Source: Candidatus Poribacteria bacterium (GTDB lineage Bacteria > Poribacteria > WGA-4E > WGA-3G). From it: 64,000 bases of DNA. Shown here piece by piece: positions 20,349 through 56,835 of this stretch (position 1 is the first letter of the stretch; every line of letters starts with the position of its first letter). The notes under the pieces are model-generated. The model searched no databases and was not told the origin of the DNA. It saw only the letters and a program-made list of their open reading frames with translations. Position numbers and translations under genes: made by a program. The DNA lies in the NCBI GenBank assembly GCA_965215265.1, contig OZ244048.1, positions 4,224,001 to 4,288,000 of the forward strand, read 5' to 3'.

Positions 20349-23300
20349 ATGAGTTTCCAAGAGATTATTTTAGCATTAGAAAAATTTTGGGCAGAGCAGG
20401 GCTGTCTTATCCAGCAACCTTACGATGTTGAGGTAGGAGCAGGCACGTTTAACCCTGCAACTTTTTTACGATGCCTTGGCCCCGAACCATGGCAGGCAGC
20501 TTATGTTGAACCTGTCCGCCGTCCAACTGATGGACGCTACGCCGAAAACCCTTTCCGCTTAGGAGCGTACTACCAATATCAGGTAATTTTAAAGCCCGCT
20601 CCAGAGAATGTTTTACCCCTCTATCTTCAGAGTTTACATCACCTCGGCATTTCCGCTCGCCACAACGACATCCGGTTTGTTGAGGACGACTGGGAATCTC
20701 CTACCCTTGGTGCCTCTGGCCTCGGTTGGGAGGTCTGGTGGAATGGAGCGGAGGTTACGCAATTTACCTATTTTCAGCAAATGGGCGGCATTGAACTCAA
20801 TCCGATTTGCGCCGAAATTACATACGGGCTCGAGCGCATCGCACTCTATTTGCAGGATGTCGACAGCTTCTTTAATATTCGCTGGAACGAAAACCTCTCT
20901 TATGGCGATGTCTATCGTCACAGTGAGATAGAGCACTCAATCTATAATTTCCAGCAGGCAAATGTTGAGATGCTTTTTGAACTGTTCTATACATACGAGA
21001 AAGAAACCTATGCTTGCTTGGACGGAGGATTGGTACTCCCGGCAACAGACTATGTGTTAAAGTGCTCGCATACGTTCAATATGCTGGATGCACGCGGGGT
21101 TATCAGTGTAACAGAACGTGTGAATTACATTGAACGAGTCCGGCGACTCGCCCAACAGGTCGCACGCGCTTATGTGAAACAGCGTGAAGAAATGGAGCAT
21201 CCCTTACTCGGAAAATGGAAAACCCAAGAGCCGTCCGATGTACAACACAAAACAGAGAACCCCTCCGACGAGATTTACACAAGTGACGAAAATCTAAACA
21301 GAGAACCCCTCCGACGAGATTTACACACGAATTATCAAAACAAACGCGATGACGGTACCGAGATAGACGAAAACACAAAAAACGAATTGCTTTTTGAAAT
21401 CGGTACGGAAGAAATACCAGCCAGTTACTTCCCGCCCGCATTGGAAAAACTCCGGCTTATGGCAGCCGAATCATTGATGCACCATAGGATCGAATTTGAC
21501 GAAGTCAAAACCTTTGGCACACCACGCCGCATCACACTTGCTGTTAAGGGCCTAGCAACACGTCAAAAAGATAAACAGATAGAGATAGTCGGACCCCCAA
21601 AACGTATCGCTTATGATAAAGAAGGACAACCAACCAAGGCGGCAATCGGCTTTGCCAAGACCCACGACGTGGCATTTGAAGCACTCCGTATCGTTGAAAC
21701 GCCCCGAGGCGAATACGTCGCAGTTACCAAACTCGAAAAAGGTATGCCAACCGCTGAAGTATTGAAAACGCTCATACCGGACTGGATTGAAAAACTCCGT
21801 TTTCCGAAAACGATGCGCTGGTTCAATGATGAGAAATCAAGCCGGAAACGGTTCGCACGCCCTATCCGATGGCTTGTTGCACTCTTAAACGAAAAAATTG
21901 TACCTTGCATCTACGGCTCGTTAACCGCAGGATGTCTAACGTATGGGCATCGTAACCTGCATCCAGAACCAATAATTCTTGAATCCGCTGCACTTGAGAA
22001 CTACATAACCGAATTGCGGAAGGCAAATGTAATCGTCCATCCAGAGGAACGGCGTCAGACAATCAAAAACCAACTCCTGAATATTTTAGAGGCAGAAAAG
22101 TGTCTCACTACAATTGATGAAGAATTATTGGATACAGTCAATTACTTGGTGGAAAACCCACAACCTATTGTAGGAAGTTTCAGCGAATCGCACTTAGTGT
22201 TACCACCTGAAGTATTGATCACCGCTATGAAGAAGCATCAACGCTATTTCCCGATGTGGAAATTGGGAGAGTCGTCCTCGAGCACCATACAAAACAGATT
22301 CATTACTATTTCCAATGGAACAGATGGGAATTTCGATGGCGTTCGTCACGGAAACGAACGCGTTTTACACGCTCGACTCAATGATGCCGAGTTTTTCTAC
22401 CGCGAGGACCAGAAAACTCCTTTTGCCGATAAAGTAGAACGGTTAGGGACCGTTGTTTTCCACGCGAAACTCGGTTCATTGCTGGATAAAGCCAAACGAC
22501 TTAAGGAATTGGTTCGGTTTATTGCGACAACACTACAGCTACCAGAAACAACGTGCTGCCACGCAGAACGTTGTGCTTGGCTCTGCAAGGTAGACTTGAC
22601 AACACAGTTGGTGATTGAATTTCCTTCCTTGCAAGGCATCGCAGGCAAATATTATGCACAGAACGCCGGTGAGACAGCACTTGTAGCGGACGGTATTGCT
22701 GAACATTATCAGCCACTCGGCGCGGATACTGCGAGCCCCGAAACAGAAGTCGGCGCACTTGTAGCCGCAGCCGATAAAGTGGATACCATCGTTGGATACT
22801 TTGGAATTAAGGAACGTCCGACAGGTTCACAGGACCCGTACTCGCTACGTCGGCATGCCCTGGGTGCCCTCCGTATTCTACAAGAACGGCGGCTGCCTCT
22901 CTCGTTCGATGCTGTTGTCAAAAAGGCAATATCGCTCTACAAAGTTGAATTGGCGACGGATACTGAAACAAGTGTCCTCGGTTTTATCAAGGAACGGCTG
23001 CGAGGCATCCTCCAAACACAAGGAAACTACGCCCCGGATGTGGCAGATGCCGTACTGGCAGTAAGCCATATCAATGTGCCGGATGTTTTAAAGCGCGCTG
23101 AGGTACTTGCAAAGTTTAAGCAGACCGCAAACGAATCAAAAAAAAGTTATAGTGACACGCACAGTCAGTTGACTTTGAATTTTGAACGCGTCTATAATGC
23201 ACTTAATCGAGTGTTGCGAATTTTACCGGAGACACCGCCGATAGATGTAGATGAAACACTTCTAATTGATGATGCCGAAAAAAGCCTGGCCGAGTTTATT

Positions 23301-23528
23301 AACACCGCGGAGCCGCACTTTGAAAAAAGCATTCAGGACGGAGACTATTTAGAACTACTCACACAGTTAGCGAAACTACAACCCGCAATAGATCGGTTTT
23401 TCGACGATGTTTTGGTTATGGCAAAGGAACCGCAAATACGACAGAACCGGTTAGCATTACTCAATCGAATCGCAAAACGCATCTATGCTATCGCTGATTT
23501 GACAAAATTGGTAATTGCAGGATATTAG
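20349..23528 (+). CDS. glyQS: Fused glycine--tRNA ligase alpha/beta subunits
   Basis: Alpha: [31 protein letters not shown]. Beta: [25 protein letters not shown]. Single ORF. Confidence 0.95.
21228..21373 (+). repeat. Foldback-repeat locus 8, translated in frame as the GlyQ-GlyS linker
   Basis: CTCCGACGAGATTTACACA occurs twice (~21263, ~21309), and the second arm ends GGTACCGAGATAGACGAAAA. Confidence 0.9.
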
Positions 23529-30523: not shown

Positions 30524-32272
30524 ATGAAGAAAATATCAATATTTTTTCTCTGTTTTTTATTATTTTTTAGCAATAGTTCTCTGAGTCAAGAGAGACTTGA
30601 TATTGGAGAATCAATACATCTAACTTTTAAAGTCCTAGGTTGGCAGCCTAAAGATGCTGTCGGTATTAAATATCCGGGTCGTGTCTCCAAGGAGCGGATA
30701 CAAGGAGATCTGAGTGCCTTAGCACAAGCACACGGCTGGAGGTATTTTGAAAACGCCTTAGAGATTACGTCTGAAAAAGGCAATAAAGTGGCGTGGCAAA
30801 GTGGAGTTCTTTCAGAAAAACAGCATCTTGCTATGCACTTTACACTCAACTTTCAAAAGCTGCGAGAGCAGTTTCAAGATGCTGATAGCATTATTATTGA
30901 TATCATCGGTAAAAACGGATTTACCTATCGGGATGCCTTTACACCTGTCGAGGCTATGAATAACGGCGTTGAATTGCAGAATCAGAAGAGGTATAGCGAA
31001 TTTACATTCCACAAAAGTTGGAGTGGGATGGCAACTTACCAAATTCGCTATACCCTTCACCTTTCACAATTATCTGCAAAGGTTATCTTGCCAACACTTA
31101 AAGCTGAGACATCATTTTCCAAGACGTGGTTGTTCAAGATAAGTCCACTTCTAATACTTCTAATCTTATTACCTGGAGTAACCCTTTATTTATTCATTAG
31201 GCAAGGTCTATCCCGCGACGAACGCGGTAAACTTAGGAACTCACCCCTCCAAGGGGGTATACTAAGTTTTGAAATCCACCTCGGTATGGCAATAACTCTT
31301 CATCTTGGTTGTGCAGAGGTATGTTCTGCATTAATGCGAAACGCACTTTTAGGAGTTATCTTTGGTGTTTTTCCAGTCGGCTTAGCTTCAGGTCTAATTA
31401 TTTTCCTGATTGTCCACCACTACGAAAAAGACGTGCGTGGCACCACCTGGAGTTTTCGTGAAAACTTCCTTACCAATCTGCGGATGATGGTTTTAAGTAC
31501 GCCTGCCCTGCTACTTCCGTTCTGCTTCTTTGCGACACAGAAAGCCTTCCCACACTTACCATTTTTTGTCTTCGGGCTCCTCCTTTTAGCACAATACGCA
31601 CTATTGACGGCACTTTTCGCCTGTGTGATACCTTTTGCCTTAGGTTGGGTCTGGAAAGGAAAACCTTTAGAAGACAGCACACTTCGGCAACGCCTACATC
31701 AACTCGCAGATAAGGCAGGCGTAGCTTATAGAGACATCATCTTACTGCGAACTCAAAGCAGTAAGTTAGCCAACGCCTGGGTTGCAGGTATCCTCCCGCA
31801 GTGGCGTTCGGTATTTCTAACGGATTACCTGCTTGAACATCTGACACCGGAGGAGATTGAAACTATTTTTGCTCATGAGTTGGGACATATCAAACATCGG
31901 CATCTGCTGAAGCAGGTGGCGTGGATAGTTCTCGGGTTCGGGGGGCAATTACTCCTCATACACTTGAGCCTTTTACTCTTTGACTCACTGCCTATGTTAC
32001 CCACATGGCTCTATTGGTTGCTATTTGTCGGTGTCAATTTGGGTGTGATTCTGTTGGTGGTTCAGTTGGGTTTGATGCGTTTTTGGCGGGGGATGGAGTT
32101 TGAGGCAGACGCTTATGCGGTGGCCCTGACGCAGCAACCGGCGGTTTTTCTACAGGGGCTGCGGAAACTGATTGAGTTGAATGACGCACCTGAAGACCTT
32201 GACACATTTAACGAGATGTTATCCACCCATCCCAATTTTACCGCGCGCGCCGAGGCGATTGAAAACTTGTAG
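30524..32272 (+). CDS. M48 family membrane metallopeptidase, copy 1
   Basis: Signal peptide, TM segments, ANAWVAG, HELGH, EFEADAYA and STHP. Confidence 0.9.
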   Translation: MKKISIFFLCFLLFFSNSSLSQERLDIGESIHLTFKVLGWQPKDAVGIKYPGRVSKERIQGDLSALAQAHGWRYFENALEITSEKGNKVAWQSGVLSEKQHLAMHFTLNFQKLREQFQDADSIIIDIIGKNGFTYRDAFTPVEAMNNGVELQNQKRYSEFTFHKSWSGMATYQIRYTLHLSQLSAKVILPTLKAETSFSKTWLFKISPLLILLILLPGVTLYLFIRQGLSRDERGKLRNSPLQGGILSFEIHLGMAITLHLGCAEVCSALMRNALLGVIFGVFPVGLASGLIIFLIVHHYEKDVRGTTWSFRENFLTNLRMMVLSTPALLLPFCFFATQKAFPHLPFFVFGLLLLAQYALLTALFACVIPFALGWVWKGKPLEDSTLRQRLHQLADKAGVAYRDIILLRTQSSKLANAWVAGILPQWRSVFLTDYLLEHLTPEEIETIFAHELGHIKHRHLLKQVAWIVLGFGGQLLLIHLSLLLFDSLPMLPTWLYWLLFVGVNLGVILLVVQLGLMRFWRGMEFEADAYAVALTQQPAVFLQGLRKLIELNDAPEDLDTFNEMLSTHPNFTARAEAIENL

Positions 32273-32400
32273 TGCCGAGCGGCTGTCCGATGGTAGACGC
32301 GTTTTTCATAGAGAGAAGCGATCTATTTTAGTATCGTTTTTCCGGGAATGTTAATATCAGACCGCTCGCCAGACAGCCACCGAAAGGGAAATAAGCACGC

Positions 32401-32490
32401 ATAGTCGCGAACATCATAACGCTCTGTCGCCTATTGTTAACCTTTCTCGTTGTGATTCTATTTCGACTCCAGCGTATACTTGACATCGCC
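32401..32490 (+). pseudogene. Truncated 5-prime copy of the CDP-alcohol phosphatidyltransferase gene
   Basis: Near-identical to 36351-36440, but ATG is ATA and the match is cut off before the TA module. Confidence 0.75.
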
Positions 32491-32621
32491 AAGGAGACAA
32501 TACTTCGCAAAAAAAGTTAAGCTGAGCGAAGAATGTTTCTACAAAGAATAAAGGAACCTTCGCACTTTCGCGCAGAGAGTCTCTCAAGTCTACAATCGAG
32601 GCGTAAATAAATTCCCTATAA

Positions 32622-32951
32622 CTAAACAGCAACCACCCGCCGCTGTCCTTCTCTATCTTCTGAAGGAATAATGTGAATCTCAATATCGCGATGTAACCGA
32701 TTAAGAAACGTCATCAACCGCTCGACACTGTAGTAAGAAAGCTTGGCGGCTTTAAGGCGAGAAACTTCAGGCTGTTTAACGCCAAGTAACTTCGCCGCCT
32801 CTACCTGAGTTAACTTGCGTTCCTTCAGAACGCGGAAAATCTCCGCCCCCAACTGCGCTTTTAGCAGTTCTGCCGCTGCAACTTCATCAGAAAACCCCAA
32901 ATCCTTGAAAATATTCTCGCTGCCTTCTTCAATCTTAATTTTATTGCTCAT
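32622..32951 (-). CDS. XRE-family HTH antitoxin (HigA-like)
   Basis: GSENIFKDLGF..LTQVEAAKLLGVKQPEVSRL; overlaps the toxin stop. Confidence 0.88.
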   Translation of the reverse strand: MSNKIKIEEGSENIFKDLGFSDEVAAAELLKAQLGAEIFRVLKERKLTQVEAAKLLGVKQPEVSRLKAAKLSYYSVERLMTFLNRLHRDIEIHIIPSEDREGQRRVVAV

Positions 32952-33310
32952 AACCCTTTCTCCATCTCCTTAGCTCGTCTTAATCTTCGTTTAATCAAGT
33001 CGAGCTCCTTCTTCGGTGTGCTAAGCCTTCTCTTTGATTTCTTTTGAAAACAATGCAGTACATACATGCTTAGACCAATCTTAACCGTATAAACCGCTCG
33101 ATAAGTATCTGTGTTATAGTTATCAACAATCTCAAATACGCCGGATTCTATATCTTTCATCGGTTTTGCCGATGGCGGAGTTTCACCTATCTGCACACGA
33201 TACAGTGCATGCCCAATATCCTTACGCACCGGCTCTGGAAAAGCCTGTAACCGTTCTCTTGAATCACCAACCCATCGAACGTTTCTAGGTGTTGTTATTT
33301 CTTGAGCCAT
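32948..33310 (-). CDS. RelE/ParE-family toxin (Gp49/HigB-like)
   Basis: GVFEIV..YRAVYTVK..YVLHCFQKKS..TPKKELDLIKRRL; toxin-first gene order. Confidence 0.88.
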   Translation of the reverse strand: MAQEITTPRNVRWVGDSRERLQAFPEPVRKDIGHALYRVQIGETPPSAKPMKDIESGVFEIVDNYNTDTYRAVYTVKIGLSMYVLHCFQKKSKRRLSTPKKELDLIKRRLRRAKEMEKGL

Positions 33311-33315
33311 ATCCT

Positions 33316-33344
33316 ATTATAACTAATTATCTATATTTTCGCAA
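33316..33344 (-). promoter_or_regulatory. Putative sigma70 promoter of the TA operon, near-leaderless
   Basis: Minus strand TTGCGA, 17 bp, TATAAT, ending 5 nt before the ATG. Confidence 0.6.
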
Positions 33345-33513
33345 GTCCAGAGTCATAATTACTGCTTGCTATAGTATACATTCTGCGTGCGTTCAACCGG
33401 ACGCTCGCACGCGAAAATTACACTGTGTATTTTGATAGACACCGCTTCCCTTATGAGTCTATGGGATGGATTCCACGTGAGTAAGGACTTAGTGATTTCC
33501 GAGGATATCCTTG

Positions 33514-33765
33514 TCGGTATTTCTGACGGATTACCTGCTTGAACATCTGACACTGGAGGAGATTGAAACTATTTTTGCTCATGAGTTGGGGCATATCAAA
33601 CATCGGCATCTGCTGAAGCAGGCCCGGCAACCGGCGGTTTTTCTACAAGCATTGCGGAAACTGATTCAGTTGAATGACGGGCCCGAAGACCTTGACACAT
33701 TTAACGAGATGTTATCCACCCATCCCAATTTTACCGTGCGCGCCGAGGCGATTGAAAGATTGTAG
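33514..33765 (+). pseudogene. M48 peptidase C-terminal fragment with internal deletion
   Basis: Matches SVFLTDYLL..HELGH..LLKQ fused directly to QPAVFL..STHP; the TM pair and EFEAD motif are missing. Confidence 0.85.
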
Positions 33766-33782
33766 TGCAGACGGAGTGTCCT

Positions 33783-34366
33783 ATGGTAAACGCTTTTCTG
33801 GTACGAAGAATCAATTGACAATTATTCTCTTGAATGGTATCGTTCACATTTTAAACACGCAATCTATTTATGGGCAGCTAGAGTTATCTGAGGTGCCTCG
33901 TAACATTCAGATTGCAATTTCAGTTCTCGGTGGTTTTTCTATTATCGCCGGGGCATTTATCAGTTGGTTGCTAATAAGCGTTGTCCTCTTCTTCTGGTGT
34001 GAGTTATTTTACGATGTTGAAGGAAGTTTCCGAAATTTCTTTGAACTTGTAGGTATCTGCCATCTCGTGTTGTTAGTCGGAACGTTAGGTTGCTCCTTTT
34101 TCATCATTTTCGGTTTACCTGCTGATTTCACGATGGTTGAATCCAACGCCACAGATTCACAAGAAATGTTAGACACAATTACTGAAACATTGTCACCGCT
34201 GAGACTTATCGGTGCAGTTGGCAATATATGCTTCGGGTTCATCATCGTAATAGTGATTCGCGGGTTCTTTGAAATCACGTGGCTCAAAGCATTTTGCAGT
34301 GTGGTGATTCCTTATGTTATTTATTGGCTGATGAGCAAAGGTCTGAAAGCTGTTTTTTCGTTTTAA
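33783..34366 (+). CDS. Yip1-like multi-pass membrane protein (start uncertain, possibly frameshifted at the 5-prime end)
   Basis: Several hydrophobic segments with a GSFRNFFELVG and ..ITWLKAF.. pattern. The GGAG-ATG at 33783 is out of frame with the main ORF. Confidence 0.55.
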
Positions 34367-34431
34367 TCTATTTACACGTCAAATCCGCATGCTAAAACGT
34401 GAGGGCACATCAGCGAGGAGAAAGGCACGAC

Positions 34432-36198
34432 ATGAAAATAATCTCGTTTTTCTGTATAGGGTTTTTCCTTTTCCTGGGTAACAATTCCATAAGTCAGGAG
34501 TCGTCCGAGACTGGAACTTCCGTTCATCTGATGTTCAGAGTGCTCGGTTGGCAGCCAAACGAGGCGATTGGGATAAAATATCCAGCAAACGTTTCCAAGG
34601 AACAGATACAAGCCGACATGGCAGCTTTAGCACAGGCATACGGTTGGACGTATGCTGAAAAATCCCTTGAAATAAGGTATAAAAATGGGAGGAAGGTTGC
34701 TTGGCAAGAAGGGGCACTTTCAGAAAAACAGCGTCTTGCTAGGAACTTTGTGCTAAACTTGCAAGTCTTGCATGAGCAGTTTCACAACGCTGATAGCATT
34801 GTTATTGATATCATAGGTCAAAACGGATTCGTCTATCAGGATTCTTTTGCAGCTGTCGAGGTTGCAAACAACAATATTAATATGAATGAGCAGAAGTGGC
34901 ATCGCCAGTTTGGTTTCCGTAAAATCTGGTCGGGCGAGCTCAGTTTCGTTGGGCTGTCAACTTACCGAATTCGGTACATGCTTCATCCCGTGCAGTTCTC
35001 AGGCAATATGAATTTGCCCGTGCTCAAAGCCAATTTCTCATTTTCCAAAGTATGGTTTTTAAAGGTGGTTCCACTCCTGCTTTTTTTAATAGTAGTGCCA
35101 AGTGTAACGGTGCATCTGTTGTTAAAGCGGGACGTACGTTTCAACGAACGCGGTAAAATTATACTCAAACCGCTCCAATTGCTAATCATTTACATTGAAC
35201 TTCATATTATTATAAGTTCGGTGTTCTATCTAGGTTATATATATCTATGTATAGCAGTAACACAAAGTGTATTTTTGGGCTTTCTATTGAGTGTGGTTCC
35301 GGTTAGTGTAACTTGCCTTCTAATTTTCCTCCGTGTTCTTCACCATCACGAAAAAGCCTCACGTGGCACCACTTGGAGTTTTCGTGAAAACGTCCTTACC
35401 AATCTGCGGATGATGGTTTTGGGTGCCCCCGCACTGCTACTTCCGTTCTGCTTCTTTGCGACACAGAAAGCCTTCCCACACTTACCATTTTTTGTCTTCG
35501 GGCTCCTCCTTTTAGCACAATACGCACTATTGACGGCACTTTTCGCCTGTGTGATACCTTTTGCCTTAGGTTGGGTCTGGAAAGGAAAACCTTTAGAAGA
35601 CAGCACACTTCGGCAACGCCTACATCAACTCGCAGATAAGGCAGGCGTAGCTTATAGAGACATCATCTTACTGCGAACTCAAAGCAGTAAGTTAGCCAAT
35701 GCCTGGGTTGCAGGTATCCTCCCGCAGTGGCGTTCGGTATTTCTGACGGATTACCTGCTTGAGCATCTGACATTGGAGGAGATTGAAACTATTTTTGCTC
35801 ATGAGTTGGGACATATCAAACATCGGCATCTGCTGAAGCAGGTGGCGTGGATAGTTCTCGGGTTCGGGGGGCAATCACTCCTTATACACTTGAGCCTTTT
35901 ACTCTTTGACTCATTGCCCACGTTACCGCCATGGCTCTATTGGTTGTTATTTGTCGGTGTCAATTTGGGTGCGATTCTGTTGGTGGTTCAGTTGGGTTTG
36001 ATGCGTTTTTGGCGGGGGATGGAGTTTGAGGCAGACGCTTATGCGGTGGCCCTGACGCAGCAACCGGCGGTTTTTCTACAGGCGCTGCGGAAACTGATTG
36101 AGTTGAATGATGCACCTGAAGACCTTGACACATTTAACGAGATGTTATCCACCCATCCCAATTTTACCGCGCGCGCCGAGGCGATTGAAAACTTGTAG
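34432..36198 (+). CDS. M48 family membrane metallopeptidase, copy 2
   Basis: Same architecture as copy 1; the C-terminal half is near-identical to copy 1. Confidence 0.9.
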   Translation: MKIISFFCIGFFLFLGNNSISQESSETGTSVHLMFRVLGWQPNEAIGIKYPANVSKEQIQADMAALAQAYGWTYAEKSLEIRYKNGRKVAWQEGALSEKQRLARNFVLNLQVLHEQFHNADSIVIDIIGQNGFVYQDSFAAVEVANNNINMNEQKWHRQFGFRKIWSGELSFVGLSTYRIRYMLHPVQFSGNMNLPVLKANFSFSKVWFLKVVPLLLFLIVVPSVTVHLLLKRDVRFNERGKIILKPLQLLIIYIELHIIISSVFYLGYIYLCIAVTQSVFLGFLLSVVPVSVTCLLIFLRVLHHHEKASRGTTWSFRENVLTNLRMMVLGAPALLLPFCFFATQKAFPHLPFFVFGLLLLAQYALLTALFACVIPFALGWVWKGKPLEDSTLRQRLHQLADKAGVAYRDIILLRTQSSKLANAWVAGILPQWRSVFLTDYLLEHLTLEEIETIFAHELGHIKHRHLLKQVAWIVLGFGGQSLLIHLSLLLFDSLPTLPPWLYWLLFVGVNLGAILLVVQLGLMRFWRGMEFEADAYAVALTQQPAVFLQALRKLIELNDAPEDLDTFNEMLSTHPNFTARAEAIENL

Positions 36199-36350
36199 TG
36201 CCGAGCGGCTGTCCGATGGTAGACGCGTTTTTCATAGAGAGAAGCGATCTATTTTAGTATCGTTTTTCCGGGAATGTTAATATCAGACCGATTGCCAGAC
36301 AGCCGCCGACATTGAAATACATTGCCCCAGAATTAAGGAAATAAGCACGC

Positions 36351-36929
36351 ATGGTCGCGAACATCATAACGCTCTGTCGCCTATTGTTAACCTTTCTCGT
36401 TGTGATTCTATTTCGACTCCATCGTATACTTGACATCGCCCTAATTTTCACAATCACCGGTATCTTCATACTTGATGCCCTGGACGGCTACATCGCCCGA
36501 AAACGCCACGAAACTTCTCAACTGGGTGAGATCCTTGATACTGTATCCGACAGAATTATTGAAAACACGTTCTGGATTTATTTCGCTGTGGTAGGCGATA
36601 TTCCACTCTGGATGCCACTCGTAGTCATGGCACGCGGTTTTATCACTGATGCCTCGCAACACCTGTCTGGATACCCGCAAAGCGGGTGGAGATCCGCCCT
36701 CACCCGCTCACGTATCAGTCGTGCCCTATCTGGCATGACCAAGATGCTCGCTTTTACCGGTCTCGCCAGCGTTCCTGTTTTCAATAACGACACCCTCGAA
36801 ACCGTCAGCTTCATCCTCGCCACGTTTGCTGTTGGCTTTTGTCTGCTTCGTGGGCTCCCTTTCTTCTTCATCAGTAAACCGCTATGTCAACCAAACACCT
36901 CAAAGACATCGCGTTCTTCTGCGATGTGA
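36351..36929 (+). CDS. CDP-alcohol phosphatidyltransferase family protein
   Basis: ANIITLCR and LDALDGYIARK...GEILDTVSDR motif. Confidence 0.88.
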   Translation: MVANIITLCRLLLTFLVVILFRLHRILDIALIFTITGIFILDALDGYIARKRHETSQLGEILDTVSDRIIENTFWIYFAVVGDIPLWMPLVVMARGFITDASQHLSGYPQSGWRSALTRSRISRALSGMTKMLAFTGLASVPVFNNDTLETVSFILATFAVGFCLLRGLPFFFISKPLCQPNTSKTSRSSAM

Positions 36930-37004
36930 ACGCTTGAGTGTCTCATCTACGTAGGGGTTGTTCTTCTTTGCGCTATCCTATCCGATCAACGGTATTGTTT
37001 GCAT

Positions 37005-37125
37005 TTTATAGTTAACCTAAAAATATCTTGACATTTGCTTTGACTTGTGTTAGGTTCATTGTATTATGAGATATTCAATAGATTTACGAAAACGCGTCCT
37101 GGATTTTATTCATAACAGAGGCTAA
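37005..37125 (+). mobile_element. Possible IS630-family left-end remnant
   Basis: Mini-ORF 37066-37125 MRYSIDLRKRVLDFIHNRG resembles the IS630 transposase N-terminus (YSxDLRxRV); a TATA precedes the putative end. Confidence 0.5.
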
Positions 37126-37178
37126 GTGGCACGCTGCAGTCCATTTTTCAATTTCATTAGCCAGTGGAGGTTCACAAT

Positions 37179-38993
37179 ATGAAGAAAATATTATACTTTT
37201 GTCTCTGTTTTCTGTTTTTTTTCAGCAACAATGCTTTGAGTCAGGAGTCGCCCGATACTAGAGAATCAATACATCTAACTTTTAAAGTCCTAGGTTGGCA
37301 GCCTAAAGATACCGTTGGTATTAAATATCCGGGTCGCGTTTCCAAGGAGCGGATACAAGGAGATCTGAGTGCCTTAGCACAAGCACACGGCTGGAGGTAT
37401 TTTGAAAACGCCTTAGAGATTGCATATGAAAAGGGCAATAAAGTGGCGTGGCAAGGTGGAGTTCTTTCAGAAAAACAGCATCTTGCTGCGCACTTTACAC
37501 TCAACTTTCAAAAGCTGCGAGAGCAGTTTCAAGATGCTGAGAGTATTATTATTGATATCATCGGTAAAAACGGATTTACCTATCAAGGGACCTTCTCATT
37601 TTACGCTGATATAAATAAAAACACTAATTTGCTAGCTCGGAACTGGCAAGAACAATTCTCCTTCCATAAGAGTTGGATAGGCATCTCAAATTACCGAATT
37701 CGCTATATCCTTCACCCCATGCATCACCCAGAATCCTTGACTTTTCCAATGCTCAGAGCTACAGCATCCTTCTCCAAAACCTGGATGTTAAAGACGATAC
37801 CGTTCTTGATTTTTCTAACGTTTATACCGAGCACAATCCTTTATCTATTTATTCAACAAGGAGTGTCTCAAAATGAAACAGGAAAAATTAGATTATCTCC
37901 TGCCAAATCAATCATAATCAATATGCTATTTCCTTTAATGGTATGGGTGGTAACAGTTATCGGATGTGCAGATGTACTCACTACGCTGACACAAAACAGA
38001 ATTTTAGGTGGAATATTGGGAATTGCAACGGTACCTATTCTATCCTACGTGATTTTTCTATTTGTCTTGCATAGGTATGAAAAAAATGAACGCAATACTA
38101 CGTGGAGTTTCCAAGAAAATTTTCTGACGAACCTACGTATGATAATTCTCGGGGCCCCTACACTGTTATTGCCTTTCTGCTACTTCGGCACACAAAAAAT
38201 CTTTCCCCAACTCCCATTCCTTCTGTTCCTTGTTCTCCTTTTAGGTCAGTATGCACTATTGACAGCACTCTTTGGCTGTGTGATACCGTTCGTTATGAGT
38301 TGGATTTGGAAAGGAAGCCCTTTAGAAGACGGCGCACTTCGGCAACGTCTACAGCAACTCGCACACAACGCAGGCGTAGTTTATAGAGACATCATCTTAC
38401 TGCGAACTCAAAGCAGTAAGTTAGCCAACGCCTGGGTTGCAGGTATCCTCCCGCAGTGGCGCTCGGTATTTCTAACGGATTACCTGCTTGAGCATCTGAC
38501 ACTGGAGGAGATTGAAACTATTTTTGCTCATGAGTTGGGGCATATCAAACATCGGCATCTGCTGAAGCAGGTGGCGTGGATAGTTCTCGGGTTCGGGGGG
38601 CAATTACTCCTTATACACTTGAGCCTTTTACTCTTTGACTCATTGCCCACGTTACCCGCATGGCTCTATTGGTTGTTATTTGTAGGGGTTAATTTGGGTG
38701 TGATTCTGTTGGTGGTTCAGTTGGGTTTGATGCGTTTTTGGCGGGGGATGGAGTTTGAGGCAGACGCTTATGCGGTGGCCCTGACGCAGCAACCGGCGGT
38801 TTTTCTACAGGCGCTGCGGAAACTGATTGAGTTGAATGACGCACCTGAAGACCTTGACACATTTAACGAGATGTTATCTACCCATCCCAATTTTACAGCG
38901 CGCACCGAGGCGATTGAAAACTTGGAGTGCAGGGGGCTGTCCGATGGTAGACGCGTTTCTGGGACGAAGAATCAATTGACAATTATTGATTAA
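37179..38993 (+). CDS. M48 family membrane metallopeptidase, copy 3
   Basis: N-terminus near-identical to copy 1. The stop TAG is changed to GAG, giving a short read-through tail. Confidence 0.9.
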   Translation: MKKILYFCLCFLFFFSNNALSQESPDTRESIHLTFKVLGWQPKDTVGIKYPGRVSKERIQGDLSALAQAHGWRYFENALEIAYEKGNKVAWQGGVLSEKQHLAAHFTLNFQKLREQFQDAESIIIDIIGKNGFTYQGTFSFYADINKNTNLLARNWQEQFSFHKSWIGISNYRIRYILHPMHHPESLTFPMLRATASFSKTWMLKTIPFLIFLTFIPSTILYLFIQQGVSQNETGKIRLSPAKSIIINMLFPLMVWVVTVIGCADVLTTLTQNRILGGILGIATVPILSYVIFLFVLHRYEKNERNTTWSFQENFLTNLRMIILGAPTLLLPFCYFGTQKIFPQLPFLLFLVLLLGQYALLTALFGCVIPFVMSWIWKGSPLEDGALRQRLQQLAHNAGVVYRDIILLRTQSSKLANAWVAGILPQWRSVFLTDYLLEHLTLEEIETIFAHELGHIKHRHLLKQVAWIVLGFGGQLLLIHLSLLLFDSLPTLPAWLYWLLFVGVNLGVILLVVQLGLMRFWRGMEFEADAYAVALTQQPAVFLQALRKLIELNDAPEDLDTFNEMLSTHPNFTARTEAIENLECRGLSDGRRVSGTKNQLTIID

Positions 38994-40515: not shown

Positions 40516-41658
40516 TTACAAAAGATCACGCCCGATGGCGATTAATCGTGTTGCTTGCTCCGCTGTATCGGCTATCAACCGTGATGCATCCGCAACCGCG
40601 AGGTCAAGGGACATCGGTTCCTGCACGATACCCAGCATTGCGTCAATACCGTGCTTATAAACCGCTTCCGCACCTTTGGCAATACCGCCTGCAATTGCAA
40701 TGACCGGGGTATTGTACACTTTCGCAACTTTTGCAACACCGACGGGAGTTTTGCCAAACGTAGTCTGAAAATCAAGTTGACCTTCACCGGTGAAAACGAG
40801 CGCAGCACCTTTGATACGTTCTGTGAGTTTTACGGCATCAATCATAATATCAACACCGAGCCGCAACTCAGCATTGAGGAATGCCATGAGTCCTGCACCT
40901 AAACCGCCGGCCGCGCCGGCACCGGGGATGTTATTAAAGGAGTTTCCAAGGGCACCCCCCAAAATTTTATCAAAATGTGTCAAATTTTCATCAAGCGTTT
41001 CAATCATATCCGGGGTTGCCCCTTTTTGAGACCCATAAACGTGCGACGCGCCCTCTGGTCCAGTTAAAGGATTGTTGACATCACATGCTACAACGGTTTC
41101 GGTTTCCGCAATAGCGGGATGTAAATGAGTTATATCTACCGTTGCCAATTCGCTAAGTCCACCGCCGCCGTGCGCTACCGGCTCTCCGGCTGTATTCAGC
41201 AATCTTACACCGAGCGCCTCTGCCATGCCAGCCCCGCCATCGTTTGTTGCGCTGCCACCAATACCGATGATAAGCCGGCGGCAGCCAGCATCCAAAGCTG
41301 CATGGATGAGTTGACCTGTGCCGTACGTTGTGGTGAGGAGCGGATTCCGTTTCTCGCGCGGCACGAGCGGAAGACCTGAAGCGGTTGCCATTTCAATAAC
41401 TGCAGTGTGCTTATCCGAAAGGATGCCAAATCGCGCATCGACTTCGTTACCGAGTGGGGCAATCACACGCTCTCTCCGAATGGTGCCACCCATCGCGTCA
41501 ACGAGGGATTGCGCAGTGCCTTCGCCACCATCTGCCATTGGCACTTTCTCAATCACTGCCGATGGAAAGACGCGGCGGATTCCTTGTTCAATCGCACTTG
41601 CCGCTTGCAGTGCACTAACGCTTCCTTTGAATGAATCAGGGGCGACTACAATTTTCAT
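40516..41658 (-). CDS. glxK: Glycerate kinase (GlxK/GarK family)
   Basis: APDSFKGS, MADGGEG, GGSATNDGG, GAGAAGGLG and TGEG. Confidence 0.92.
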   Translation of the reverse strand: MKIVVAPDSFKGSVSALQAASAIEQGIRRVFPSAVIEKVPMADGGEGTAQSLVDAMGGTIRRERVIAPLGNEVDARFGILSDKHTAVIEMATASGLPLVPREKRNPLLTTTYGTGQLIHAALDAGCRRLIIGIGGSATNDGGAGMAEALGVRLLNTAGEPVAHGGGGLSELATVDITHLHPAIAETETVVACDVNNPLTGPEGASHVYGSQKGATPDMIETLDENLTHFDKILGGALGNSFNNIPGAGAAGGLGAGLMAFLNAELRLGVDIMIDAVKLTERIKGAALVFTGEGQLDFQTTFGKTPVGVAKVAKVYNTPVIAIAGGIAKGAEAVYKHGIDAMLGIVQEPMSLDLAVADASRLIADTAEQATRLIAIGRDLL

Positions 41659-41882
41659 GTTGATTGTATCATGCTTTCCGAACGCAGTTTATCATCAAAC
41701 TGCCTTCCTGGCAAACCTTGAACGTTTCTTGACTAACACGCTAATAACAATTTATCACGAGCATTGCAATTTTTCAAGTTTTTTTCAATGCACTTCTATC
41801 TTAATGCAGCCTATGAGGGCAGCAAAAACGGATACGTTCCTAGCTACAGATCTAAACTATAATTTCAAAAAAGGAGTCACAC

Positions 41883-42745
41883 ATGAATTGGGAATTGGAA
41901 ACAGCTGTCTCTGATGAACAAGTTGAATTTTACAGAGAAAATGGATACCTCAAATTCGGTAGAATTTTTACCAAACCCGAAGTCGATTTTTCGTCTAGTG
42001 CAGCCCAATAAAGGTTTATGCTATGTTAAAGCCCTTACAAATCTCGTCAGAGCCGTCTTAGGTTTAGAATCTAAACATCTTTGAACTTCGAGAGTATGTC
42101 GATGAAATGATTGCGAATTTGCCGGACGGAAAACGACCGGAACAGATGGATGTCCCGCACTTTGAGCACCCTTTCCTCTTCAAATATCTTACCCATCCAC
42201 GTGTCCTAAAGGTAATAGAACGGTTTATCGGACCGGATATCGTGCTCTGGTCTAGTCACTTCATTAGCAAGCGCGAAGGAGATGGCATGGAAGTTCCGTG
42301 GCATCAGGACGGTGTCTATTGGGGAAAAATGCTTGAACCGATGAACGTCATCACTATGTGGTTGGCCGTAGATGAATCCACGCTCGAAAATGGATGTATG
42401 CGCGTCATCCCCAAAAGTCACCAATTACGGAACCGCCGGTATGAATCCGTGAATAGGAAAAATAACCTCTTTGGAAGCGAAATTATTCATGAAGACATGG
42501 CCGCATCCCAAGCGGTTGACTTGGAATTGCAAGTCGGCGAGTCTCATTTTCATGATGCCTGGACAATTCACAACTCTTCTGCTAATACGTCACAGAAACG
42601 GCGATGCGGTTACACAATGCGTTACATGCCAGCCGATGTCCGGTACCCAGGAGCAGAATGGCGACGCACACACTACATCTATCTCTTGCAAGGCGAAGAT
42701 CGAACGGATGGGTTTAATACCTACGCGCCCGTGCCAGTTTCATAA
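41883..42745 (+). pseudogene. PhyH family dioxygenase interrupted by a 95-bp repeat insertion
   Basis: AAGGAG RBS and ATG 41883 give MNWELETAVSDEQVEFYRENGYLKFGRIFTKPEVD. After the insert the gene resumes ELREYVDEMIANL..WHQD.. The insert carries TAA at 42009. Confidence 0.85.
41988..42082. mobile_element. Foldback-repeat locus 12: left arm plus palindromic core inserted in phyH
   Basis: TTTTCGTCTAG..ACAAATCTCGTCAGAGCC..GTTTAGAATCTAAACATC. Confidence 0.9.
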
Positions 42746-42750
42746 CCGGC

Positions 42751-42826
42751 TTTTGTATATCTCCGTACCATCAACGCTTAGGTATTGACAACTCGTGTGT
42801 AAATCTCGTCGGAGATTCCTTAGGTT
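42751..42826. repeat. Foldback-repeat locus 13 (reverse right arm after the phyH stop)
   Basis: TTTTGTATATCTCCGTACCATC..GTGTGTAAATCTCGTCGGAG. Confidence 0.9.
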
Positions 42827-42941
42827 ATGATTCCTCAATCACTTTTCTCGCAAACTCCTCAATCTCCGCAGGATCCCCACCTTGATATAGAACTACCGTG
42901 GAACGCTCTCACAATTTCCATCAGGTTGACACATTATAGTA

Positions 42942-43796
42942 TTATTTTACAATTTCAACTGCGCGAATGCGGTGACGAAGAACAAGCACACAGAGAAGCG
43001 CCAACACCACTATTGTGAGAAGAGTCCAAAACCAAGAGACAGAGTAGTTCTTAGAAAGACCAAACAGCACAGTCCCTAGTCTATCATAACTTGTCCATAC
43101 TGAAACCCACGCCACTTTACTGCTGTGTGTAATTTCGCGTAGAATTTCAAAGATTATATACGTGCCAAACCAAACAGCACAAAAACCTATTGTCGCGTAA
43201 CGCGGATTTGATGTCAGCGACGAGAATAATAGGATCAGCAAACTTGCAGACACGATAATAATCGTCGAATACGCTATGATAGACAACGGTAACCAATAGT
43301 TTTCACGGAAGAACGGCGTATCCGTTAACAGCAGGTGTTCTAAAAATAGAAGGATCCCCGGAACTACCGTCAGGCAAGCAAGAAGAATGCCAACCACAGC
43401 ACATTTTCCAACGAGATAATCGACCCAGGAAATCGGTTTGGAGAGATAAAGCGTTAACGCGTTATTTTTCAGATCATTCGCTATTAAACCAGAACCTCCA
43501 AAAATTGCAATCAGAGCAATGAGGAATGGAGTGACCGGAATTAAAAATAAAAATTGCTGGAAAGCCTTTACATCAACAGAAAATATAGGAGTTGAGGCAG
43601 GAAATTGATTCACGATATAGATAAGCATAGCGTGAACTAAAATGTAGATTACAGGCGGTATGGCAACGATGAGGCGAACGATTTTCCGTTGCGCGAGCAG
43701 CCTCAGTTCAGCTTTCGTGATAATCCACCAACGCATACGAGTGTGCGGTTTTAACGTCCCATCCCAATGCCGGTAATGTTGCGTGTGAATAGGCAT
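42942..43796 (-). CDS. ABC-2 type transporter permease
   Basis: GSGLIANDLKNNALTLYLSKPISWVDYLVGK motif; about six TM segments. Confidence 0.85.
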   Translation of the reverse strand: MPIHTQHYRHWDGTLKPHTRMRWWIITKAELRLLAQRKIVRLIVAIPPVIYILVHAMLIYIVNQFPASTPIFSVDVKAFQQFLFLIPVTPFLIALIAIFGGSGLIANDLKNNALTLYLSKPISWVDYLVGKCAVVGILLACLTVVPGILLFLEHLLLTDTPFFRENYWLPLSIIAYSTIIIVSASLLILLFSSLTSNPRYATIGFCAVWFGTYIIFEILREITHSSKVAWVSVWTSYDRLGTVLFGLSKNYSVSWFWTLLTIVVLALLCVLVLRHRIRAVEIVK

Positions 43797-56744: not shown

Positions 56745-56835
56745 TTTTCGTATATTTCAGCGCTATAAAGGCTGCTGCTCTATTAAAACCTTTACAAACC
56801 TCGTCAGAGCCGTTTATGTTTTGAATCTAAACATC
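56745..56835. repeat. Foldback-repeat locus 14: left arm plus core, same extent as the phyH insert
   Basis: TTTTCGTATATTTCAG..ACAAACCTCGTCAGAGCC..GAATCTAAACATC. Confidence 0.88.

Follow-up and report, generated by a model that had tools for sequence, protein, structure and literature searches.

Why does a phyH gene of a Poribacteria sponge symbiont fall into two open halves that lie in different frames, and what is the 95-bp sequence that stands between them? We address this in a window of 64,000 nt (the whole stretch of DNA analyzed; coordinates are window positions on the plus strand unless marked "genome") from a closed, one-contig genome of 4.83 Mb, referred to here as G000. The explanation we regard as probable is that a solo half-element of a genome-specific, modular palindromic repeat family was pasted into phyH, and that the gene is now a fixed pseudogene. 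The broken phyH itself is a routine pseudogene and an ordinary outcome. Its value lies in providing a clean, base-resolved landing site of a repeat family that occupies roughly 2% of the genome of a sponge symbiont, is absent from a sister species, enters essential genes in frame, and leaves no duplication behind.

The N-terminal part of the gene (41883..41987, plus strand) opens with an ATG at 41883, reads MNWELETAVSDEQVEFYRENGYLKFGRIFTKPEVD, and encodes 35 codons (MNWELE...TKPEVD) that align colinearly with residues 1-35 in each of the 11 orthologues. After TKPEVD, the open reading frame (41883..42011) continues with the foreign residues FSSSAAQ and ends at a stop at 42009-42011, inside the insert. 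The insert (41988..42082, plus strand) is a solo half-element that brings both a frameshift and this in-frame TAA, and it is absent from all 11 orthologues. The C-terminal part (42083..42745, plus strand; 220 codons and a stop), in a frame shifted by 95 bases, reads ELREYVDEM... from 42083, stays open to the stop at 42743-42745, and is colinear with the orthologues. It contains the whole catalytic domain and matches PF05721 (PhyH) over profile positions 40-211 of 213 with an E-value of 2.3e-28 and 100.4 bits (cut-off 22); the 35-aa N-terminal part taken alone gave no PF05721 match. A 212-aa ORF starting from the ATG at 42107 retains the whole catalytic domain, and a truncated product may be made from it. 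Five bases past the phyH stop lies a second half-element, of another subfamily (42751..42838, plus strand; 88 nt, with a unit match at 42751-42815), which has a 97.7% identical 88-nt copy with unrelated flanks at genome 4429292-4429379.

An initial annotation of this locus had proposed that phyH is split by 95 bp whose precise removal restores the reading frame, with at most one ambiguous T at the junction and no evident target duplication, and comparison with relatives bears out each of these points. The orthologue search covered 40 relatives in addition to G000 and found close orthologues in most same-family genomes (80-87% identity over the C-terminal part), and the alignment used the 11 loci returned, all from the same family, with 81-86% identity and lengths of 254-255 aa from the start codon. 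All 11 begin MNW or MDW...GRIFT and continue ...PEL-D|E-LRDY..., running straight across ...GAT|GAA... without a gap or an added residue at D35|E36. The empty site is thus present in every one of them, and two orthologues carry the exact string GATGAACTTCGG there. The alignment and these two strings agree in defining an insert of exactly 95 bp, at 41988-42082 or 41987-42081 given the one ambiguous T, with zero target duplication. An intact second copy of phyH was not found in G000, where the next match is 44% identical; the genome holds 36 matches to the PhyH protein, the split copy being one among them. The same-genus relative, G001, has no orthologue of the split gene (its best match, with an E-value of 2.3e-40, is at paralogue level), and for this reason the split phyH appears to be dispensable in the lineage.

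The insert can be divided into a 61-nt arm unit (TTTTCGTCTAG...ACAAATCTCGTC; 41988..42048, plus strand), which nhmmer recovers with the unit model as a match at 41988-42054 with an E-value of 1.8e-14; a 31-nt tail (42049..42079, plus strand), which matches the left half of the loop at the centre of full palindromic elements and ends in GAATCTAAACATC; and three extra bases, TTT (42080..42082, plus strand), which are the first bases of the next unit at the matching locus (CATC|TTTTCGTC). The tail motif recurs in the loops of full elements, at the ends of other half-elements, and in tandem modules of 87-90 nt. A chance resemblance to the tail motif is also seen in the 30-nt repeat (ending in ...GGAATCGAAAC) of a large CRISPR array at genome coordinates ~524000-535100. 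Positions 1-71 of the insert are 100% identical to genome 2322437-2322507, and positions 50-95, including the three final T, are 100% identical to genome 2322670-2322715; both pieces sit in one complex repeat cluster (genome 2322437-2322715) and are joined through a shared 22-nt stretch. The phyH copy looks as if its template had a further unit after the tail, which would explain the three extra T. The second copy that the initial annotation had placed at 56745-56835 is real: it is an intergenic sister half-element of equal extent (56745..56835, plus strand), 83% identical over insert positions 1-92 and ending in AATCTAAACATC. The insert is one module of a repeat family with hundreds of members, and not a special element.

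The unit of this family is 61 nt long, starts with TTTTCGTATA, ends with AAATCTCGTC, and is abundant in the window, where it often forms head-to-tail arrays with a 61-nt period and is usually arranged in convergent groups around a loop. In a full element, one or more arm units lead into the stem CTCGTCGGAG, followed by a loop of ~35 nt containing GAATCTAAACATC, the stem CTCCGACGAG, and the inverted arm or arms; the conserved stem that follows the arm units starting with TTTTCGTATA reads ...AAATCTCGTCGGAG. A half-element consists of the left arm together with the loop up to its centre or just beyond, and tandem modules of such a build have a period of 87-90 nt. Across the 4.83 Mb of G000, nhmmer returned 840 unit matches (430 on the plus strand and 410 on the minus strand) at 438 loci, among them 217 solo units and 66 '+-' pairs, besides numerous larger mosaics (++-, +-- and similar). 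The repeat islands around these loci total about 91 kb. The cumulative GC skew of the whole genome is lowest at 0.66 Mb and highest at 4.71 Mb, and does not divide the genome into two similar replichores. Among the 30 relatives searched, a related family was seen in only one other genus, represented by G004 (G004:C1:312829-315864), and the family was not found in G001. What the families of G004 and G000 share is only the central hairpin (...CAAATCTCGTCAGAGG, loop, CCTCCGACGAGA...) and adjoining sequence, and this sharing across two genera points to the hairpin as the putative functional core. The two same-genus genomes carry opposite loads of mobile DNA, with the repeat family and 0 Y1_Tnp matches in G000, and 34 Y1_Tnp matches and no repeat family in G001.

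The half-element is a discrete copied unit. Among 121 segment pairs of at least 97% identity and at least 60 nt at different loci, of which the 70 longest were inspected, the shared stretches end time and again at fixed landmarks: from the T-run, they extend either for 65-69 nt to ...CGTCGGAG or for 87-94 nt into the loop. In pairs of the latter length (identity at least 97%), neither flank is related between the two copies and direct repeats are lacking, as in an 89-nt pair that is 100% identical (genome 479840/4355585); further half-element pairs are found at genome 2588894/4309697 and 4408967/4409933. The 5' end of the unit always lies at a T-run before (C/T)GT(A/C)TA, and this end is fixed, while the 3' end falls in the loop and varies between subfamilies, with an overlap of 0-1 nt. 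Of seven full elements with unique flanks, six lack a duplication and one has a 2-nt match. The initial annotation had suggested deriving a target motif from further insertions; none emerged next to the left end, as the 139 unique left flanks of terminal units have no conserved tetra- or pentanucleotide. The junctions resolved to the base number only two, those in phyH and in a thioredoxin-domain gene.

A search of other genes for the same insert, also proposed in the initial annotation, showed that half-elements or a full element break at least three genes besides phyH, and other genes carry repeats in frame. A scan of repeat islands within long open frames gave 34 island/strand rows, with ~20 islands in ~15 ORFs carrying a unit match; several of these gene-internal islands are close to the start of their ORF, where they may represent leader sequence. 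Four proteins with gene-internal islands were compared with their orthologues. A UvrA-like ORF of 2083 aa (genome 1077177-1083425, minus strand; L019:177-6425) contains four in-frame repeat islands, two of which (~37 and ~80 aa) are clearly missing from five orthologues, including the same-genus one of 1901 aa. GlyQS, in which glyQ and glyS are fused as one ORF of 1059 aa (20349-23528), has a linker at about 21230-21385; the fusion is common to five relatives, and ~22-25 repeat-encoded linker residues, which derive from a minus-orientation unit (21308-21373) and a partial unit (21237-21281), are missing from five orthologues. An ORF of 1415 aa has ~29 extra repeat residues, and one of 959 aa has ~26. 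The typical inserted peptide corresponds to the minus orientation of the unit in its open frame. As judged from these reading frames, the repeat family enters coding sequence and is predicted to be translated there.

The broken genes were sought with two screens. A crude screen for open frames on either side of repeat clusters gave 197, 349, and 193 candidates and was set aside, any same-strand gene pair being enough to qualify. Requiring a paralogue across both halves left 3 of 193 candidates, in a screen that is blind to paralogue-less genes and to short halves and that missed phyH. The thioredoxin-domain gene is broken by a half-element of 86-87 nt, with a 1-nt T overlap and no duplication, and a 98.9% identical copy lies elsewhere. 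In a DNA-methylase/Mrr fusion gene, whose orthologues of 579-602 aa are colinear, a half-element of ~90 nt keeps the frame but introduces a TAA. The insertion there is not clean: ~5 nt were replaced for a net gain of 87 nt, at a target similar to a tail-end/unit-start junction. Another methylase gene is interrupted by a full element, with ~21 residues missing. The two broken members of the N6/N4 DNA-methylase family lie at genome 4517208-4519031 and 4338187-4339091, one of them fused to an Mrr-like nuclease domain, and this family reaches up to 54 matches in one relative.

We then consider whether the insertion in phyH is real and lasting. Parts of the stretch are held in 17 public runs from 11 studies, and four runs from four studies were examined as assembled contigs. 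In runs X2, which may be the source sample of the genome assembly, and X5, the left-flank contig extends 29 nt into the insert and the right-flank contig starts 30 nt inside it, stops of 29-30 nt being usual for unitigs at repeats. In X7, record 18 crosses the left junction with no mismatch, covering 193 nt of flank and then 71 nt of insert, and is the only contig that formally bridges a junction under a 31-letter rule; in X8, record 28 enters the insert from the right. The notion that the insert is an assembly artefact, a repeat misplaced in the gene, draws on the high copy number of the insert and on the breaking of short-read unitigs inside it. However, contigs from four studies enter it from unique flanks on both sides, record 18 of X7 among them, and none joins the flanks directly, and we give this notion practically no weight. 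The GTCGAT/GAACTT junction that the initial annotation had recommended looking for, that is, a direct joint of 41987 to 42083, is missing from the contigs of all four runs, although contigs drop rare variants and low-frequency excision could escape. The strain in X5, which differs over the 1.2 kb examined by 8 bases and a 1-base deletion, has the insert as well. Its coding changes are T30N, R40C (a codon with two changes), H113Y, and T196A, next to one synonymous change; none of the 11 orthologues varies at T30, R40, or H113. The argument for decay draws on this one variant strain and five changed codons. The description of both halves as showing no other decay holds for G000, where they are free of stops and frameshifts. 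We conclude from these contigs that the insertion appears to be older than the split of the sampled strains and fixed in them, and that phyH is probably a pseudogene starting to decay. The earlier claim of recent mobility is in keeping with the 100% identical pieces elsewhere in the genome, which show that the copying was recent in evolutionary terms; it has to be tempered, since the contigs of four runs, including the variant strain, hold the insert and none has the empty site. A reversible switch or RNA-level removal had also been raised. If the insert were taken out again by precise excision, by removal from the RNA, or by ribosomal bypassing from TTT (41988) to TTT (42080), phyH would be functional, and both halves are indeed intact in G000, with TTT at the start and end of the insert offering a take-off and landing pair that would give D-F-E. 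Yet the orthologues have no F at the junction, no stop follows the putative take-off codon, and the insert with its flanks, folded as DNA and RNA, does no better than shuffles (z -0.15 and -0.14). An Rfam scan of 41500-43200 with E-values up to 10 gave two chance-level hits outside the insert and nothing below an E-value of 2, and scanning for promoters and terminators revealed nothing promoter-like on the plus strand of the insert from which the C-terminal part could be expressed. With the empty site in contigs of 0 of 4 runs, with a sister strain altered at three invariant residues, and with UvrA-like, GlyQS, and other ORFs reading the repeat family through in frame, as if the cell translates these copies rather than removing them, we consider such removal very improbable, and infer that the insert is removed neither at the DNA nor at the RNA level.

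How, then, might a half-element have reached phyH? In the explanation we prefer, a half-element would have been copied from a template where the tail is followed by another unit, and the copy entered a phyH paralogue between GAT and GAA, leaving the target without a duplication; the insert shifts the frame and brings in a TAA seven codons on, making the gene a pseudogene. The copying would proceed by an enzyme or by a replication or repair route outside the known footprint-free transposases, and our best guess, held with low confidence, is the copy-in of a hairpin-bounded, probably single-stranded fragment with a 0-1 nt overlap at the T-run. DDE-type transposition is argued against because the duplication is missing throughout the family. 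This much agrees with the initial annotation, which had favored an HUH-type or recombinase-type insertion over DDE; the positive half of that preference fares less well. For HUH-type single-strand transposition, in which an IS200/IS605 TnpA or RAYT-like enzyme would move the repeat as a REP- or PATE-like non-autonomous partner by way of a short target motif, one can cite the lack of target duplication, the hairpin-forming core conserved in two genera, the BIME-like mosaic clusters, and the frequency of Y1 genes in the clade (18 of 24 relatives, with 34 matches in G001), such that a partner could have been recently lost. Closed G000, however, has 0 matches to Y1_Tnp (PF01797), with 6 of 14 control genomes positive; it likewise has 0 matches to IS110 (PF01548) and 0 to TnpB (PF07282), both with positive controls, and 0 Y2 matches, though the Y2 control genomes were also silent. 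The 139 left flanks lack the tetra- or pentanucleotide that such an enzyme would read, copies 100% identical at different loci speak of recent activity and make total loss of the enzyme less likely, and the orientation bias of solo units is weak (115 vs 82 on one side of the skew extremes, in a genome whose GC skew gives no credible replichores). The IS200/IS605 copies of G001 were considered as parents and dismissed, none of the six matching the unit model even at an E-value of 10. A larger parent element with the same ends was not found in G000, where 6 plus/minus unit pairs lie 300-5000 nt apart with unrelated inner ORFs, and the multi-copy ORF families of this genome are not flanked by units. 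Taken together, we hold an HUH-type origin to be improbable. The main rival to the copy-in proposal is a repair or replication accident, in which a break or stalled fork in phyH was patched from a repeat array through end joining or a template switch, the overlap being 0-1 nt. It would account for an insert made of two pieces of one locus, joined via the shared 22-nt stretch and overshooting by 3 nt into the next unit, for the overlap of just 1 nt (T) in both phyH and the thioredoxin-domain gene, for the untidy methylase insertion (87 nt net for ~5 nt, at a target like a tail-end/unit-start junction), and for the finding of no transposase in G000. The methylase and thioredoxin-domain gene targets both resemble the tail-end motif, with three sites considered in all. 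Microhomology-guided template switching, as a specific form for phyH, was rejected, as its junctions share at most 1 nt. Against accidents stand the recurrence of 87-94-nt half-elements with the same sharp ends at unrelated loci, which fits a defined mobile unit better, the 5' end that always lies at a T-run before (C/T)GT(A/C)TA, and the sheer number of ~840 units at 438 loci, which is many for accidents; we therefore regard this origin as unlikely, if more credible than the HUH-type one.

Returning to copy-in of a half-element, a bolder version of it would be that the family represents an undescribed kind of mobile DNA, namely a half-palindrome module that is footprint-free and transposase-orphan, has its 5' end fixed at a T-run and its 3' end lying in a hairpin loop, copies itself into intergenic and coding DNA alike, and is moved by host-side machinery outside the HUH, DDE, DEDD, and recombinase classes. 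We think this doubtful; if true, the phyH insertion would be one of few base-resolved records of its landing. Rpn/YhgA-like 'Transposase_31' proteins (PF04754) number 24 copies in G000 vs 0-7 in 30 relatives, and include near-identical families of 15 and 8 ORFs (for example, at genome 1264848-1265474, L047, and 4188098-4188706, L049). These genes are not nearer to repeats than others (19% vs 16% of other ORFs within 500 nt), and they are also present in 15 relatives that lack the repeat. These PD-(D/E)XK nucleases as the mover of the module are a lead and no more.

The family can be set beside several known systems of small repeats. The REP and BIME elements of enterobacteria and pseudomonads are mobilized by RAYT. 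Like these elements, the repeat family has hundreds of copies, a hairpin core, alternating mosaic clusters that are mostly intergenic, and no duplication, and it shares their makeup of high-copy, mosaic, imperfect palindromes; unlike them, it lies in a genome with no RAYT/Y1 gene, has longer units (61-nt arms and ~35-nt loops), and has gene-internal copies too. Mycobacterial MIRU-type repeats, as commonly described, are also head-to-tail units of ~50-100 nt between operon genes and sometimes within ORFs, whereas tandem arrays are here just one of the forms taken by a palindromic, dispersed family. For PATEs derived from IS200/IS605, one would look for insertion 3' of a conserved 4-5-nt target together with TnpA, and for IS110/IS1111 (DEDD) or TnpB-associated elements, for the gene of the enzyme; neither was found in G000. 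Nor does the insert have the stable structure or Rfam match of a self-splicing intron or structured RNA. DDE-derived MITEs (Correia/NEMIS, ERIC, and Chunjie), as far as they are treated in one published account (PMC10969869), resemble the family in their terminal inverted repeats (here TTTTCGTATA...TATACGAAAA), small size, non-coding nature, and occasional disruption of genes, but the family has no target-site duplication and no parent element or IS with the same ends in G000. The same account describes Rickettsia palindromic elements (RPEs) of about 150 bp in ten families, with 44 gene integrations in R. conorii, nearly half of them within ORFs (PMC10969869). As described there, these too are small palindromes in many copies that enter protein genes, are kept in frame as an added peptide, and have no known transposase of their own. 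The repeat family, being present in frame in conserved protein genes and absent from their orthologues, behaves alike, and the likeness is one of behavior only. Phylum and sequence are unrelated, the 61-nt arm units here also form tandem arrays, the gene-invading form is a half-palindrome of ~87-95 nt, and the phyH copy, far from being tolerated, is out of frame and has destroyed its host gene. By analogy, the behavior of the repeat family would be that of REP/BIME clusters in intergenic DNA and that of Rickettsia palindromic elements within genes.

The spread of REP-, RPE-, and BIME-like elements in genomes without RAYT is a long-standing question, and a closed genome with identical recent copies and several resolved junctions offers a reasonable test case for it. 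Among the matches listed from the literature on Poribacteria and palindromic repeats, judged by titles and the starts of abstracts, none describes the family, and they cover CRISPR or general genomics. The window also contains, at 30524-38993, three tandem paralogous membrane proteins of 582-609 aa with small genes interspersed. Their C-terminal halves carry HELGH (M48-like peptidase) and are nearly identical among the three, and their N-terminal halves have diverged.
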